Sequence record: OQ921333.1
DNA: 39,287 nt
Source: Escherichia phage vB_EcoP_PAS61
Direction: 5' to 3' (one strand)
Under the pieces are notes generated by a model that did not search any database, had not been told where the DNA came from, and saw nothing but the letters and a program-made list of their open reading frames with translations. Numbering within the stretch: the stretch's first letter is position 1; every line of letters begins with the position of its first letter. A program made the position numbers and the translations under genes. Positions 3,560 to 33,162 of the stretch are shown piece after piece.

Positions 3560-4441
3560 TTACATAGATGTTTCGTTTAATTCTTCCCGACGAACGCTGT
3601 AAACGTCGGTGGCTTTTGCCAGTAGTTCGTCATCATCTGAAAGTTTTTGTGCAATGTATTTGTAAGCCTTATCCAGTTCGGAGACAGTGCTGTAATTCAT
3701 CGCTGCGCTGGTAAAGGCCATCAGCATTTCTTCTGGATCACGGCTATCCGCTTTACGCGTTTGCTCATCAGGCTTTTTCACTGGTTTAGCGTTGATCAGA
3801 CTGTTCATTCCCGCAGCAGTAGTTGTTTGCGGAGTAATGTCTCGTTCAACGCGCGGTGTCGTTTCCTGTAATTCGTCAGGGGTGTAAACACCGAGAAGTA
3901 CATCAGGAGCGTGCAGACGAGCCCATCGTTTCGTGCAAAGATAGGCAAGTTGCTGGCGCGGATCCTGTTCCCACAATGGAGAGTTACGCACTCCGGCTTG
4001 CGCCATACTGATGGTAAGCTCACGTGGTTCTGCTTCTCCTTTAAGAACTGCTGACACAGTTACCGTCAGATTCGGTGATTTATCTGTTTTGCCGTTAACA
4101 TTCGACCAGTCACCGCTCCAGCGATAATTCAGGCGTGTCGCTAGCAGGCTGGAAGAGGATACGACCGCGTTTACCAACTGTGCTTCGTAGCCTAACGTTC
4201 CGTTTACCACATGCGTTTTCTGCGCCACGGCGAAAGGGTTCATTCCCCACTGTGCCGCCTGCATGGTCACCGCCAGGCAATCGGCAGGTTTGCCTTCAAG
4301 ATGTTTCGGTACAGTCGCTTTGCTTTGTGACATCAACTCCGCGAAACGCACCAGTTGATTCATGCCCTCGGGGCTGAAGATTGCCGCAGCAGTGCCTACA
4401 GTTGCGCCTGGTTGTGATGTGATTGCGATATCATTGCTCAT
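3560..4441 (-). CDS. RecT/Red-beta family single-strand annealing protein
   Basis: 293 aa; segment VERDITPQ recalls the lambda Bet C-terminal region (from memory); paired with an upstream exonuclease via ATGA overlap. Confidence 0.55.
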   Translation of the reverse strand: MSNDIAITSQPGATVGTAAAIFSPEGMNQLVRFAELMSQSKATVPKHLEGKPADCLAVTMQAAQWGMNPFAVAQKTHVVNGTLGYEAQLVNAVVSSSSLLATRLNYRWSGDWSNVNGKTDKSPNLTVTVSAVLKGEAEPRELTISMAQAGVRNSPLWEQDPRQQLAYLCTKRWARLHAPDVLLGVYTPDELQETTPRVERDITPQTTTAAGMNSLINAKPVKKPDEQTRKADSRDPEEMLMAFTSAAMNYSTVSELDKAYKYIAQKLSDDDELLAKATDVYSVRREELNETSM

Positions 4442-5259
4442 ACGTACATATCCTGTTTACGTGCCCAGTCAGGGCGTTTAATAATTTCCACTCCGCCCCA
4501 TTCATCGTTGATGCGGCATTCGTGATAGGTATTCAGATCCCGGCGGAACAGAGCGTGCCCGGCATCGACATCCGGCGCATCCAGCTCGAACACGCGTACC
4601 GGATACCGACCACAATCAATGCTTTCGCTCACGGCAAGAAAGAAAAAACCATGCGGCTGACCAGTAACCCTCATTGCGCCTTCGCGGTACATTGCGTCCT
4701 GCACGTGGTAGCGGAATTCCTCGATGTGGCGTGCAAAACGGTCCATATCTGCAACCTTTTTCACGTCGACGATCACGTTGTGCTCGTTCAGCCATTTGTC
4801 TGGACGAATTCGGCACAACTCACCCGTCTCTTCATCGTTCCAGTACATTGATGCTTCGCAGTAACCAGGTGCTTCCAACATCCAGCGCGCCGCCGGATGA
4901 GCCATTGCGCTATCACGCATCAGCTCCAGTTTTCGCCACTGCTCGACATCAAGTACCGTAATACCCATATCCGCCACATCACGAAGAAATGCTTCTTCGT
5001 GAGCTTTACCTTGTTTTGTCCGACGATCGAATTTCGGTGAAACGATGAAGCGTTTGTCGAATTCTCCAGGCTCCAGAAGCAGACAGTGCAATGCGGTTCC
5101 CATATCCAGTGCAGACTTTTTCTCTTCGTCTTCTGGTGCTGCCTGAACCCATTTAAGAAGCGCCGGATTCTTGGCAACCATGTCCAGTTGCGACTTACTC
5201 ACGCCGTCACCGGCGTGGTAGTCTTCGTTGCTGATGTCGAAATAAATTCCCGGCTTCAT
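4438..5259 (-). CDS. PD-(D/E)XK exonuclease (RecE/YqaJ-like recombination exonuclease)
   Basis: 273 aa; DISNEDYH N-terminus, GTALHCLLLE and VIVDVKKV (D-x-K) motifs typical of PD-(D/E)XK phage exonucleases. Confidence 0.7.
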   Translation of the reverse strand: MKPGIYFDISNEDYHAGDGVSKSQLDMVAKNPALLKWVQAAPEDEEKKSALDMGTALHCLLLEPGEFDKRFIVSPKFDRRTKQGKAHEEAFLRDVADMGITVLDVEQWRKLELMRDSAMAHPAARWMLEAPGYCEASMYWNDEETGELCRIRPDKWLNEHNVIVDVKKVADMDRFARHIEEFRYHVQDAMYREGAMRVTGQPHGFFFLAVSESIDCGRYPVRVFELDAPDVDAGHALFRRDLNTYHECRINDEWGGVEIIKRPDWARKQDMYV

Positions 5260-8834: not shown

Positions 8835-8911
8835 TTACCTATAAGGTAACAAAATATTCTAAACTCTATTGATTTCGTGTCTTATGTGGTTTTTAATTAC
8901 CTTAGAGGTAA
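8835..8911 (+). promoter_or_regulatory. Promoter/operator region: TTACCTATAAGGTAA (8835-8849), -35 TTGATT (8869-8874), spacer containing TTATGTGGTT, -10 TTTAAT (8892-8897), TTACCTTAGAGGTAA (8897-8911) overlapping the RBS of the downstream gene
   Basis: Motifs read directly. Confidence 0.45.
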
Positions 8912-14623: not shown

Positions 14624-15046
14624 TTAGAAGGTTATTTTATCGAATGCGGCGTTGATTGCCTTGGCGTCCTGCTCAGCACCAACCACATCAAGTAAAGATC
14701 TTTTACTAAGCACTTCAGCCAGGCATTGTAACTTCATGTTGTATAAGTTTTCGCGCATGTAATCATCATCACTTTTTTCTTTGGCGTATACAGCGCGAGA
14801 AATATCAAACACATTGCCTTTTTCCATTTCAGTTTTCTGCGCTGAAATCCAGTCATGGCAAGTAACTCCTATTCCATGGTCATCGCTAAGCGTTAACCCG
14901 GCAAGTCGCTCACCTGGAATTGCTTCATAAAGCATTTCATTTCCTGCAAAAACACCATAAAAAATTGAGTCATCACCCTGAACAATGCGTACATATTTGC
15001 ACGGCCATTCATTTAGATATTTAGCTAGCATGTCGGCTGTTTTCAT
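14624..15046 (-). CDS. Moron gene of unknown function (antisense to the late operon)
   Basis: 140 aa ORF with balanced composition on the opposite strand between terminase and portal, downstream of a tRNA and an intrinsic terminator. Confidence 0.55.
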   Translation of the reverse strand: MKTADMLAKYLNEWPCKYVRIVQGDDSIFYGVFAGNEMLYEAIPGERLAGLTLSDDHGIGVTCHDWISAQKTEMEKGNVFDISRAVYAKEKSDDDYMRENLYNMKLQCLAEVLSKRSLLDVVGAEQDAKAINAAFDKITF

Positions 15047-15056
15047 GATCTCACTT

Positions 15057-15081
15057 TAAAAAAATGCCCGGCGAACCGGGC
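15057..15081 (-). terminator. Rho-independent terminator (GCCCGG-CGAA-CCGGGC followed by U7 on the minus strand) downstream of the tRNA
   Basis: Perfect stem with 7-nt U-run on minus strand. Confidence 0.55.
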
Positions 15082-15211
15082 TGTACTGGTTTACAGCATG
15101 AAGTCATCGCAATGGCGTCCTGCTGTAAAAAGGGCGGTGATAGTTCTTCAAGGGAAACCATCACCGCCAAGCCCCTGGAACTTCTGGCATCACGGTCCTT
15201 AGGCGTGATTC

Positions 15212-15288
15212 TGGCGTGGCATGCAGGATTCGAACCTGCGACCAACCGCTTAGAAGGCGGTTGCTCTGTCCGACTGAGCTAATGCCAC
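15212..15288 (-). tRNA. tRNA-Arg (anticodon UCU), phage-encoded
   Basis: Hand-folded cloverleaf: acceptor GTGGCAT/ATGCCAC, D-stem GCTC/GAGC, anticodon stem ACCGC/GCGGT with loop CTTCTAA, T-arm GCAGG-TTCGAAT-CCTGC, discriminator G and encoded CCA. Confidence 0.85.
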
Positions 15289-15610
15289 AACGCTGAGAGC
15301 ACTTAGCCTGTTAAGGCGCCACACTTTGTCGCGGCTCCATAAATGCTCTCATCGTTGTACCCTCGTCTCTTCCGAGGCGTCACACCGAATCGCCGGGATG
15401 GTGAATCCCCGTGCGCGGAATAAAACCGCTCGACTTGCACATTCCGGCTACCTGGTTCGTTTGCCCGAGCAAGGGAGGGTGCCCCTTAAACGTATCCAGA
15501 CCGCTATCGGCGCATGTGCCATACGCCGTACTGCTCAAAATAAAAGCTCACTCCACCTGTTTAATTTAACGACAAGCCAGTCAGGTTAGTAACCAGAATG
15601 AGCTCTTTAG

Positions 15611-15677
15611 TTACCTGAAAGGTAATAATTCACGCGTTAAATGTCAACCTTCTACGATAAATAAATCATATGTGGTT
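15611..15677. promoter_or_regulatory. Regulatory region upstream of the portal module: TTACCTGAAAGGTAA (15611-15625), TTGACA on minus strand (15647-15642), CATATGTGGTT (15667-15677)
   Basis: Motifs read directly. Confidence 0.4.
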
Positions 15678-15715
15678 AAATTGGTAATAATTTAATTGCG
15701 TACGGAGTCATTGAT

Positions 15716-15922
15716 ATGTGCATGGGTAGCTCACCATCAGTGCCTGCAACACCAGAAGTTCAGGCAGCACCACAGGAGCAGGATGCCGCCGTTGTTGATG
15801 CCCGCGACGAAGAAACACGTCGCCGTCGCGCTGCTGCTGGTCGTAGTTCTACGCTGCTTACCGGTTCTCAGGGCGACACATCAACCGCTAATACCAGCGG
15901 TAAAACGCTGCTTGGTCAGTAA
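15716..15922 (+). CDS. Small Ala/Gly/Thr-rich hypothetical protein upstream of portal
   Basis: 68 aa; RBS context GGAGTCATTGAtATG nearly identical to that of the portal gene. Confidence 0.45.
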   Translation: MCMGSSPSVPATPEVQAAPQEQDAAVVDARDEETRRRRAAAGRSSTLLTGSQGDTSTANTSGKTLLGQ

Positions 15923-15936
15923 CCGGAGTCATTGAA

Positions 15937-18144
15937 ATGGCGGAAACAACTAAAGAGCGATTGAACAAACAGTTCGCACAACTTGAAAGCGAGCGTCAGT
16001 CGTTCGAGCCGCACTGGCGCGAGTTGAGTGATTACATCAACCCGCGTGGTTCCCGCTTTCTGACTTCTGAGGTCAACCGTAACGATCGACGCAATACACG
16101 CATTATTGATTCGACCGGGACTATGGCGGCGCGCACTCTCGCCAGCGGCATGATGTCAGGCATCACAAGCCCTGCGCGTCCGTGGTTTCGCCTGGCTACG
16201 CCAGATCCTGAAATGATGGATTATGGTCCTGTTAAGTTGTGGCTCGAGGCGGTGCAGAACCGCATGAACGATATGTTCAATAAGTCGAATCTCTACCAGT
16301 CTCTTCCGCAGTTATACGGAAGCCTCGGCACATACAGCACTGGTGCAATGGCGGTGCTGGAGGATGACGAGGACATCATTCGCACAATGCCATTCCCGAT
16401 AGGCAGTTACTACCTGGCTAACTCACCTCGTGGCAGTGTGGACACCTGTTTTCGCAAGTTCTCTATGACTGTTCGTCAGCTTGTTCAGGAGTTCGGGCTA
16501 AATAACGTCAGCGAATCCGTAAAAAGCATGTGGGAAAGCGGCACCTACGAGAAGTGGATTGACGTGATGCATTCGGTTTACCCGAACATTGACCGCGATA
16601 CATTGAAGCTGGATAGCAAGAACAAGCCATTCAAATCGGTTTATTACGAGGTTGGTGGCGATAACGACAAGTTGTTGCGTGAGTCCGGATTCACAAGCCC
16701 TGCGCGTCCGTGGTTTCGCCTGGCTACGCCAGATCCTGAAATGATGGATTATGGTCCTGTTAAGTTGTGGCTCGAGGCGGTGCAGAACCGCATGAACGAT
16801 ATGTTCAATAAGTCGAATCTCTACCAGTCTCTTCCGCAGTTATACGGAAGCCTCGGCACATACAGCACTGGTGCAATGGCGGTGCTGGAGGATGACGAGG
16901 ACATCATTCGCACAATGCCATTCCCGATAGGCAGTTACTACCTGGCTAACTCACCTCGTGGCAGTGTGGACACCTGTTTTCGCAAGTTCTCTATGACTGT
17001 TCGTCAGCTTGTTCAGGAGTTCGGGCTAAATAACGTCAGCGAATCCGTAAAAAGCATGTGGGAAAGCGGCACCTACGAGAAGTGGATTGACGTGATGCAT
17101 TCGGTTTACCCGAACATTGACCGCGATACATTGAAGCTGGATAGCAAGAACAAGCCATTCAAATCGGTTTATTACGAGGTTGGTGGCGATAACGACAAGT
17201 TGTTGCGTGAGTCCGGATTTGATGAGTTTCCAATTATGGCTCCGCGCTGGGAAGTTAATGGCGAAGATGTTTATGGATCATCATGCCCGGGTATGCTGGC
17301 GCTTGGACCTGTTAAGGCATTGCAGCTTCTCCAGAAGCGCAAGTCGCAGTTGATTGATAAAGCCACCAATCCGCCGATGGTTGCTCCGACTTCCCTCAAG
17401 AATCAGCGCGCCTCCCTTCTTCCTGGCGACATCACGTATATCGATCAGATTACTGGTCAGGATGGTTTCAGGCCTGCTTATCTGGTTAACCCCAGTACAG
17501 CAGATCTGGTAGCAGACATTCAGGACACTCGTCAAATCATTAACAGCGCCTACTTTGTCGATCTGTTCATGATGTTGCAGAACATCAATACCCGCTCGAT
17601 GCCTGTTGAAGCGGTGATCGAAATGAAAGAAGAAAAACTTCTGATGTTGGGGCCGGTTCTGGAGCGTCTGAACGACGAATGTCTTAACCCTCTCATTGAC
17701 CGCGCTTTCTCGATGATGGTGCGTAAAAACATGCTGCCGCCACCGCCTGACGCGATGGAAGGTATGCCCCTGAAGGTCGAATACATTTCCGTCATGGCTC
17801 AGGCGCAGAAGTCTATCGGCCTGTCCAGTCTGGCGTCCACGGTTAACTTCATTGGTCAACTTGCGCAAGCGAAACCAGAAGCTCTCGACAAACTCAACGT
17901 TGATCAGGCGATCGATGCATTCGCTGATATGTCCGGAGTGTCTCCAACCGTCATTGTTCCGCAGGAACAGGTTGAGCAGGCTCGCCAGCAACGGGCACAG
18001 CAACAACAGCAGCAACAAATGATGGCGATGGGGATGGCGGCGGCACAGGGTGCCAAGACGCTAAGCGAAGCTAAAACTTCGGATCCGAGTGTTTTGTCAG
18101 CTATGGCGAATGCAGTTAGTGGTCAGGGTGGGCAATCACAATGA
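15937..18144 (+). CDS. Portal (head-to-tail connector) protein, T7 gp8-like, carrying an internal in-frame 176-codon tandem duplication
   Basis: 735 aa; Gln-rich C-terminus recalls T7 gp8; position after terminase; internal duplicated segment TSPARPWF...LLRESGF. Confidence 0.8.
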   Translation: MAETTKERLNKQFAQLESERQSFEPHWRELSDYINPRGSRFLTSEVNRNDRRNTRIIDSTGTMAARTLASGMMSGITSPARPWFRLATPDPEMMDYGPVKLWLEAVQNRMNDMFNKSNLYQSLPQLYGSLGTYSTGAMAVLEDDEDIIRTMPFPIGSYYLANSPRGSVDTCFRKFSMTVRQLVQEFGLNNVSESVKSMWESGTYEKWIDVMHSVYPNIDRDTLKLDSKNKPFKSVYYEVGGDNDKLLRESGFTSPARPWFRLATPDPEMMDYGPVKLWLEAVQNRMNDMFNKSNLYQSLPQLYGSLGTYSTGAMAVLEDDEDIIRTMPFPIGSYYLANSPRGSVDTCFRKFSMTVRQLVQEFGLNNVSESVKSMWESGTYEKWIDVMHSVYPNIDRDTLKLDSKNKPFKSVYYEVGGDNDKLLRESGFDEFPIMAPRWEVNGEDVYGSSCPGMLALGPVKALQLLQKRKSQLIDKATNPPMVAPTSLKNQRASLLPGDITYIDQITGQDGFRPAYLVNPSTADLVADIQDTRQIINSAYFVDLFMMLQNINTRSMPVEAVIEMKEEKLLMLGPVLERLNDECLNPLIDRAFSMMVRKNMLPPPPDAMEGMPLKVEYISVMAQAQKSIGLSSLASTVNFIGQLAQAKPEALDKLNVDQAIDAFADMSGVSPTVIVPQEQVEQARQQRAQQQQQQQMMAMGMAAAQGAKTLSEAKTSDPSVLSAMANAVSGQGGQSQ
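16163..17218 (+). repeat. Perfect tandem direct duplication, 2 x 528 bp (16163-16690 and 16691-17218), inside the portal gene
   Basis: Nucleotide-level identity read across both copies; the ORF-track translation repeats the same 176 aa. Confidence 0.9.
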
Positions 18145-20635: not shown

Positions 20636-20971
20636 ATGTCAGGTGAGAAACCAAGATACCGCGTTCTGCGCCTCTCTCATATCCATAACACGCTGTGGCC
20701 GGAGGGGGCAGAAATCGAATACGAAGGTGAGCCTGGTAGCGCACTGGAACCTGTTAACGATGCGGCCAGACAGGCAAAAGCAAAAGTTGCAGGAAAGGTG
20801 TCAATGGCAGCAACCAGCACCAAAATCATCAACGATGTGTCAGATGATGGTGAACTGGATAAGCTCCGTGAAGAGTACGAATTGCTCTTTAACGAGAAGC
20901 CACACCATAACGCCAAAGCCGAAACGCTCCGCGAGAAGATCGCAGATAAGCGTAAAGAACTGGGCGTGTAA
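20636..20971 (+). CDS. Hypothetical protein
   Basis: ORF with ATG 8 nt after AAGG; followed by intrinsic terminator. Confidence 0.5.
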   Translation: MSGEKPRYRVLRLSHIHNTLWPEGAEIEYEGEPGSALEPVNDAARQAKAKVAGKVSMAATSTKIINDVSDDGELDKLREEYELLFNEKPHHNAKAETLREKIADKRKELGV

Positions 20972-33004: not shown

Positions 33005-33098
33005 TAGCAAATAATTTGTTTGCTATCCAGCACGTTTTGCAAATTACCAGAAAGGTAATATCTATTCTTATTCACAGTCTTTCTATCCATATGTGGTT
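33005..33098. promoter_or_regulatory. Regulatory region between moron and tailspike: perfect palindrome TAGCAAA-N7-TTTGCTA (33005-33025), TTACCAGAAAGGTAA (33044-33058), CATATGTGGTT (33088-33098)
   Basis: Motifs read directly. Confidence 0.45.
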
Positions 33099-33162
33099 TT
33101 TCAGGTAATAGAATAACTAGATATGCGGCGCAACGGGTGCTGCGACTATCTGGAGATTTAAC

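Follow-up and report, generated by a model that had tools for sequence, protein, structure and literature searches.

Structured leader RNAs that make RNA polymerase resistant to terminators across long operons, such as the EAR RNA of Bacillus and similar elements, form one class of RNA-based transcription control. Phages and prophages also encode large structured noncoding RNAs, among them GOLLD and ROOL, which are often located beside tRNA genes and to which no function has been assigned. In phage HK022, the put RNA causes antitermination by modifying host RNA polymerase in cis (PMC9378689), and specialists suspect RNA-mediated antitermination in lambdoid phages related to 2H10 that lack N (PMC12315714). 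Here we analyzed a 39,287-nucleotide (nt) stretch of DNA from Escherichia phage vB_EcoP_PAS61 (sequence record OQ921333.1), referred to in its full length as the window, with emphasis on the interval 15289-15715 between a tRNA-Arg gene and the portal module. This interval consists of two parts, namely, a promoter/operator block (15611-15715) and a structured RNA element (15289-15610). The core of the element (15357-15530) encodes a conserved pseudoknotted RNA and is a member of an RNA family that is widespread among temperate Enterobacterales phages and of which we found no description.

The window phage is a phiV10/epsilon15-like Uetakevirus prophage, and its positions 15000-15950 are 98% identical to phiV10, O157 typing phages 9 and 10, TL-2011b, and ZX5. 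In a comparative alignment of the block and the element from nine Uetakevirus-like genomes, invariant blocks alternated with variable, length-polymorphic segments throughout 15289-15610, which is a signature of structured RNA. We gathered the family with the exact 19-mer at window positions 15434-15452, which retrieved at least 120 contigs from IMG/VR, and derived the structure from 97 distinct core sequences out of these matches (Table 1). Since the sequences were gathered with it, the invariance of the 19-mer is partly by construction; the copies in mEp390, BUCT708, and SopranoGao, recovered with BLAST or the covariance model, also retain it. Among the 97 sequences, 96.1% of the cells were paired, as compared to 26-46% when the partners were slid by 1-3 columns, and 270 cells showed two-sided changes, as compared to 94 ± 12 in shuffles, none of which (0/500) reached the observed value; neither control is phylogeny-aware. 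Covarying pairs were found in P1 (68 G-C and 29 A-U), P2 (51 U-A and 46 C-G), the pseudoknot (74 C-G and 23 A-U), P4 (three pairs), and P5 (four pairs).

For validation of the structure, we used 26 distinct sequences that had played no part in its derivation and came from GTDB species-representative genomes and annotated phages. In this alignment, which was fitted to the four nested helices, 97.6% of the cells were paired and 11 pairs covaried (0/500 shuffles). The pseudoknot is outside the covariance model, yet it was paired in 100% of these sequences, with 20 C-G and 6 A-U pairs at one of its positions. The first-pass annotation, made from the sequence alone, had reported several short inverted repeats in the interval and suggested a structured leader or small RNA, naming covariation against homologous regions as a check. 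This analysis gave a positive result: the inverted repeats are real and form the covarying helices, and the compensatory changes in five helices strongly support a structured RNA.

The covariation data also define the coding strand of this RNA. Canonical pairs accounted for 95.5% of the cells when read on the minus strand and for 85.4% on the plus strand, an excess that is due to 293 G·U cells. The direction of neighboring tRNA genes is the same, as each of the 52 tRNAs found within 700 nt of the element in homologous loci shares its strand; tRNA-Arg(TCT) is located 50-150 nt downstream in 32 loci, and a tRNA(CAT)/tRNA-Ile2 is located 0-25 nt upstream in 18 loci. The proposal of the first-pass annotation that the RNA is cotranscribed with the tRNA thus agrees with the strand given by the G·U pairs, with the codirectional tRNAs nearby, and with a predicted leftward promoter that overlaps the operator.

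These same features make it very improbable that the element acts at the DNA level, as a set of protein-binding sites, as a packaging or replication signal, or through hairpins of single-stranded DNA. Its location would suit such a role, given that it separates terminase from portal genes in Uetakeviruses and closely precedes the gene for the ban helicase in P1; some members also contain palindromes, for example, GGCACATGTGCC. On the opposite strand, however, the 293 G·U pairs correspond to A·C mismatches; furthermore, the compensatory changes keep pairing rather than sequence, the pseudoknot included, and the orientation of the element is that of the surrounding transcription unit in three unrelated genome architectures.

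The only open reading frames (ORFs) in 15289-15715 are short, with 87 amino acids (aa; plus strand, 15326-15589, TTG start), 26 aa, 45 aa, 52 aa, and 52 aa, in agreement with the earlier statement that no credible frame is present. A protein-coding gene, be it the 87-aa frame or another small ORF, might be considered because in 70 loci the plus-equivalent strand has an ORF of 60 aa or more that overlaps with the element and several phage records carry a hypothetical protein there. We regard this as hardly credible. Stop codons interrupt the 87-aa frame in 58 of 93 distinct homologous cores, the length differences of the variable domains fall into all three mod-3 classes in both domains, the TTG start lacks a Shine-Dalgarno sequence, and the substitutions track base pairing. 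In accordance, RefSeq dropped the phiV10 gene model, leaving tag p05 missing between p04 and p06. The 87-aa ORF was thus rejected as a gene on the basis of comparative stops and frame-breaking length variation; it had previously been dismissed as noise, and the conserved coding frame that would have spoken against an RNA did not emerge from the comparison of homologues. The strand of pairing, the direction of the tRNAs, and the broken 87-aa frame together indicate an RNA transcribed leftward rather than a protein gene. At the tRNA itself, phiV10 carries a further plus-strand hypothetical protein, PhiV10p04 (L001, 1457-1708), which overlaps the minus-strand tRNA-Arg and has equivalents in TL-2011b and EC.W1-9. 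The tRNA-Arg is not annotated in any of these three records, and coding sequences of this type are probably spurious gene calls.

Full-length copies of the core were detected by BLAST and the covariance model in P1, P7, D6, SJ46, cdtI, and Stx2a and Stx2c converting phages, as well as in 2H10, Ayreon, mEp390, mEp460, Stenotrophomonas phage BUCT708, and Klebsiella phage SopranoGao. The element was present in 1638 of 5426 complete E. coli genomes (~30%), including 258 plasmid sites. Among one-genome-per-species representatives, the exact 19-mer occurred at 24 loci, all of which belong to Enterobacterales except for two dubious metagenome-assembled genomes. The latter, labelled Oscillospiraceae and Bacillota (L145 and L157), contain a perfect copy (163 bits in L157) and are probably wrongly binned contigs of enterobacterial phages. 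A single copy was found in 159 of the 160 loci with a match; viral contig L026 contains two tandem copies on the same strand (3998-4154 and 4806-4959), ~650 nt apart. The conserved blocks survive in the tRNA-less phages Tyrion and ST11-OXA245phi3.2 and partly in epsilon15 (AY150271.2, locus 1710-1795), which retains the 5' part (36.9 bits) and has lost the tRNA-Arg and the 3' half. Rather than being a leader specific to the tRNA, the RNA forms an autonomous, widespread family that is also found without any tRNA.

In 25 records listed from E. coli, nothing is annotated under the element except the adjacent tRNA-Arg, and the phage records listed have no feature, a hypothetical protein, or another incidental feature at this position. 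The Rfam scan suggested by the first-pass annotation was run with Rfam 15 over window positions 14900-16000 (E ≤ 10) and matched only the tRNA; at the P1, cdtI, and Stx2a_WGPS2 loci (E ≤ 1), nothing was matched at the element. Rfam did detect C4 antisense RNA and isrK (60-84 bits) in the rightward early regions of cdtI (L131, 777-965) and Stx2a_WGPS2 (L132, 708-896), both of which have the element on the left. A full-text literature search with the invariant sequence in both orientations returned only unrelated C. elegans primers, and the RNA is not mentioned in the literature surveyed on phiV10, epsilon15, ZX5, P1 ban, and Stx regulatory regions, a survey whose scope did not include King 2011 and Lobocka 2004. 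The element was not found in CPS-53, the only E. coli K-12 prophage checked, which has kept yfdP-yfdT. This may explain why K-12 transcriptomics missed the RNA; the frequent disregard of prophage intergenic regions and the masking of the element by a spurious ORF may also have contributed. In the yfdO-yfdP interval of CPS-53 (L162, 5248-5604), the leader with the element is replaced by a repeat-rich segment with GATTTTGACGGGTCA-like repeats.

The terL...portal context seen in Uetakeviruses accounted for fewer than half of the loci. The element was always sense-oriented within repressor-controlled early units, namely, lambdoid PL leaders, the P1 ban operon, and the Uetakevirus tRNA unit. In ~53 lambdoid loci, it lies directly downstream of, and on the same strand as, a gene for a CI-like S24 repressor; cII-like and O-like genes in divergent orientation are found upstream, and early-left genes of the yfdP/yfdQ/yfdR type follow. 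The cdtI locus comprises, in this order, cI stop, intrinsic terminator, predicted promoter (TTGACA-16-CATAAT) flanked by an inverted repeat, core, P6, terminator-like hairpin, and ORF; the core begins ~50 nt past the -10 hexamer, and the first ORF starts 376 nt after the core. A terminator-like hairpin was detected downstream of the core in 48 of 54 distinct lambdoid loci, at a median distance of 230 nt, and a strong sigma-70 promoter after this hairpin in none of the 54. The untranslated RNA before the first gene amounts to 316-467 nt. The first downstream genes encode neither a member of a Pfam N family nor a protein with an arginine-rich N terminus, which is a weak negative given the diversity of N proteins. 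The P1 element is part of the ban operon, which C1 controls; a gap of 14 nt separates it from trnI upstream, and one of 93 nt from ban downstream.

The architecture of the core, with a multihelix junction, a pseudoknot, and invariant joining strands, and its size resemble those of an aptamer. Together with the terminators downstream, this could suggest a riboswitch-like sensor or attenuator, in which the core would bind a metabolite, an ion, a tRNA, or a protein and two folds would switch termination or RNA stability. RNAalifold proposed an alternative long-range helix, in which GCACAU in the P1 loop and 3' arm pairs with the invariant AUGUGC, with additional flanking pairs, and which is mutually exclusive with part of P1. 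All bases concerned are invariant, so covariation is uninformative on this helix, which could be a tertiary contact between loop and strand or an alternative conformer. Considering that the downstream cargo is unrelated between contexts (tRNA, ban, yfdP/yfdQ-like genes), that the nearest terminator lies at a median of 230 nt across variable sequence, so that there is no adjacent expression platform, and that the Rfam scans gave no match to known riboswitch models, we consider such a sensor improbable.

In the window, the element is preceded by the promoter/operator block, which is AT-rich and almost invariant among the nine genomes. Its GC content is 30.5%, as compared to 59.8% for the core; the earlier description of the interval as relatively GC-rich thus holds for the core and not for 15289-15715 as a whole (47.5%, against 48.7% for the window). 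The three sites that had been singled out here, namely, the TTACC-N5-GGTAA palindrome, a TTGACA on the minus strand, and the motif CATATGTGGTT, are all present, the second within 1 nt of the position first reported. Sites of the form TTACC-N5-GGTAA with at most one mismatch occur 11 times in the window, against 0.67 expected, and the one in the block is identical, over a 17-mer, to the annotated repressor binding site of epsilon15. It is a putative Uetakevirus repressor operator (ATTACC-N5-GGTAAT), and it belongs to a hyphenated palindrome that is repeated along the genome. The eleven positions (238, 5730, 5792, 6504, 6552, 8835, 8897, 12433, 12451, 15611, and 33044) are at or just upstream of ORF starts, on the early and late sides of the genome alike; almost all promoters of this phage may be under the control of a single DNA-binding protein, in the manner of C1 in P1. 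The hexamers of the predicted leftward promoter (TTGACA/TTGACC and TACCTT) keep a constant spacing of 17 nt in the nine genomes, although the sequence between them is variable, and the start site is predicted at ~15612. This promoter was below the threshold of the consensus promoter scan and was missed by it; the scan is weakly informative, with matches in 41 loci against 30 in shuffled sequence.

Based on these arrangements, we propose that the element acts as a cis-acting, put-like RNA for processive antitermination that is not homologous to put, a reading to which we assign a probability of about 0.4. Transcription would start near 15612 and run through P0, the core (15530-15357), and P6 into tRNA-Arg(UCU). 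In the manner of HK022 put, the nascent RNA would target the transcription elongation complex of the host in cis, and RNA polymerase would then pass the long untranslated leader and the subsequent terminators, by processive antitermination or resistance to Rho. In the window, this would concern the two terminators between the tRNA and the gene for a 140-aa accessory (moron) protein. Given the succession of promoter, RNA, long untranslated stretch with terminators, and genes, the absence of N, and the shared invariant single-stranded segments, a cis RNA that modifies RNA polymerase is the most economical explanation. That unrelated phages without a shared protein conserve these segments points to a conserved host target. 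Many lambdoid phages are devoid of an N antiterminator, which raises the question of how their early-left genes are expressed, and the RNA is located where the answer would be expected; 2H10 is among its carriers.

Several observations weigh against this proposal. The RNA is ~2.5 times as long as put and unrelated to it in sequence and structure, and there is one copy per phage instead of a putL/putR pair. Taken alone, the core has an unremarkable folding energy (z = -0.3), so that the case for an RNA rests on covariation and not on energy. In P1, the element is ~2.3 kb from the promoter Pban, and the scan detected no terminator between the element and ban. The element of Klebsiella phage SopranoGao follows the lysis genes, and epsilon15 is viable with the 3' half of its element deleted. 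Finally, terminator-like sites are only moderately enriched (84% of loci in the sense direction against 58% in antisense), and the terminators downstream could belong to the RNA gene itself.

This last point also fits a different reading, in which RNase P, cutting at the tRNA, and RNase E or RNase III, cutting at the flanks, would release a stable RNA from the early transcript. This RNA would act in trans and bind or sequester a factor of the host or the phage; it could be an anti-defense decoy, for instance, or regulate a host enzyme. A compact pseudoknotted RNA with invariant loops would be suited to this purpose, and the codirectional tRNAs that adjoin it (tRNA-Ile2 in 18 loci and tRNA-Arg in 32 loci) would supply built-in processing sites, as would the RNase III site annotated at the 5' hairpin of epsilon15. 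The element is, moreover, accessory, mobile among unrelated phages, and dispensable in epsilon15, and the terminator-like hairpin found 200-400 nt downstream could be its own. Nevertheless, the P1 core has no dedicated terminator directly after it, since ban starts 93 nt later; the lambdoid element fills exactly the leader of the sole promoter that serves the early-left genes; and no target has been identified, a search for complementarity not having been run. We therefore consider a trans-acting RNA unlikely, albeit the strongest competitor of a cis-acting antiterminator.

A broader statement can be made with more confidence than any specific mechanism. It appears fairly probable that the element represents a previously unrecognized class of phage RNA with a function of its own, either a self-sufficient antiterminator unrelated to put or an early RNA directed at other conserved machinery of the host (Rho, an RNase, or a defense system, for example), and that lambdoid phages, P1-like phage-plasmids, and Uetakeviruses share it horizontally. 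If real, a common and conserved pseudoknotted RNA has gone unannotated in P1, in Stx2a, Stx2c, and cdt-converting phages, and in the O157 typing phages, which rank among the best-studied mobile DNA of E. coli. In terms of annotation, its recognition corrects the spurious hypothetical protein calls over the element.

The core is flanked by two further hairpins (Table 1). P6, which separates the core from the tRNA, is very stable (-31.6 kcal/mol, z = -5.1); among 109 homologues, its stem is paired in ~80-95% and contains an A·G mismatch that is conserved, its loop is variable and contains insertions in relatives, and in Klebsiella phage ST11-OXA245phi3.2 the stem is altered on both strands. For P0, on the 5' side, inspection by eye of the window, Klebsiella, and epsilon15 versions indicated covariation in the stem, and its equivalent in epsilon15 carries the annotation of an RNase III processing site. 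Beyond the tRNA, the 140-aa ORF (15046-14624) has its start codon 20 nt downstream of the second of the two terminators, and the scan found no consensus sigma-70 promoter between the terminators and this ORF.

Table 1. Features at and around the RNA element of the window
Feature	Positions	Strand	Details
Second intrinsic terminator	15066-15081	minus	GCCCGG-UUCG-CCGGGC, then AUUUUUUU
First terminator-like hairpin past the tRNA	15133-15168	minus	14-bp stem, then CUUUUUAC
tRNA-Arg(UCU)	15212-15288	minus	anticodon TCT; ARAGORN; Rfam tRNA, 73 bits
P6, closing hairpin between core and tRNA	15289-15356	minus	last pair uses tRNA nucleotide +1 (15288)
RNA core, 174 nt	15357-15530	minus	covariance model R1, 165 bits; sole copy in the window
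P5	15377-15361	minus	loop GAAGAGA
P4	15409-15395	minus	loop CACC pairs with GGUG (15386-15383), forming an H-type pseudoknot
P3	~15429-15415	minus	variable hairpin
Invariant strand, 19 nt	15452-15434	minus	GGUAGCCGGAAUGUGCAAG
P2	15500-15497 with 15454-15451	minus	encloses variable hairpins; P2 domain 15500-15451
Joining strand after P1		minus	invariant AGCGGUC
P1	15528-15508	minus	CGGCGUAU-GGCAC-AUGCGCCG
P0, 5' hairpin	15542-15607	minus	Uetakevirus versions only; fold z = -1.7, weak alone
Putative operator palindrome TTACC-N5-GGTAA	15611-15625	both	TTACCTGAAAGGTAA; overlaps -10 hexamer and predicted start of leftward promoter
Predicted leftward promoter	15619-15647	minus	-35 TTGACA (15647-15642), 17-nt spacer, -10 TACCTT (15624-15619)
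Near-invariant AT-rich block	15650-15715	plus	CATATGTGGTT (15667-15677), GGTAATAAT, GGAG ribosome-binding site of gp3-like gene
68-aa gp3-like ORF	15716-15922	plus	next real gene after the tRNA; portal ORF from 15937

On the plus strand, the near-invariant block upstream of the gp3-like gene probably drives the gp3-portal operon, as a putative rightward promoter or activator site. The motif CATATGTGGTT occurs in three exact copies in the window, and the composite CATATGTGGTT-N5-GGTAATA is present upstream of both rightward structural operons, at 15667-15693 (gp3-portal) and at 33088-33115 (33163 ORF). It bears no resemblance to a sigma-70 -35 element and may be a late promoter or an activator site. 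Motifs of the CATATGTGGTT type were also seen on the minus strand at 8881 and 37399. The promoter for the portal operon that the first-pass annotation had placed here is thus plausible, given the near invariance of the block and the motif in common with the 33163 operon; the consensus sigma-70 scan gave no match in 15650-15715. The portal ORF itself (15937-18144) contains an in-frame tandem duplication of 528 bp at 16155-17210 (99-100% identity), resulting in 735 aa as compared to 559 aa in relatives; this may be an assembly artifact or a mutation that inactivates the prophage.

Among the known systems, put of HK022 and HK639 is the most similar in arrangement. Both put and the element are sense RNAs encoded in cis in temperate phages of enterobacteria that lack N, soon after an early promoter under repressor control, and both are followed by terminators and then by early genes. 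Such an early, repressor-controlled predicted promoter lies upstream of the element in cdtI and in the window, P1 being the exception, and the annotation of HK639 shows the same layout of pL, antiterminator RNA, and terminators, with an RNA that is unrelated to the element. The differences are considerable. The put RNA has ~70 nt and two stem-loops, whereas the core of the element has 174 nt and at least five helices, including a pseudoknot; put is present in the left and right early operons, whereas the element is present in a single copy; and the element, unlike put, is also found in P1, beside tRNAs in Uetakeviruses, and after lysis genes. Termination is suppressed in cis by put via the zinc-binding domain of the RNA polymerase beta' subunit, whereas for the element antitermination is a proposal. 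Homology to put was rejected, as covariance model R1 gave no match at the annotated putL-like RNA of HK639 with the filters switched off; R1 did not match a stretch of HK022 either, a stretch that was not confirmed to contain putL.

The element takes the same position in the lambdoid PL leader as nutL in lambda. The nut sites consist of boxA and boxB and act with the N protein, whereas the element is far larger than a boxB hairpin. A nut site was rejected because 15212-15715 contains no boxA-like match with up to three mismatches and no N-like protein was found downstream. Elsewhere in the window, TGCTCTTTAACGA in the structural operon (20883-20895, plus strand) matches the rrn/lambda boxA consensus with one mismatch, which may be due to chance. 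A likeness to the ops site of RfaH (GGTAGC), noted by eye, was also discarded, since the sequence deviates at key positions of ops and gave no match to the JUMPstart model of Rfam. The element is thus outside every family tested, namely, Rfam, put, and nut. In comparison to GOLLD and ROOL, it is much smaller, restricted to Enterobacterales as judged from the exact 19-mer, located in early-operon leaders, and without an Rfam match. The EAR RNA works in the mode proposed here for the element and is unrelated in host clade and fold, with no sequence similarity, so that this likeness is functional only. If the element is an antiterminator, it is a structurally new form and a structurally independent second solution to the control of RNA polymerase by RNA only, which could affect the induction of Shiga toxin phages; otherwise, it represents an orphan class of structured RNA with a conserved host target.

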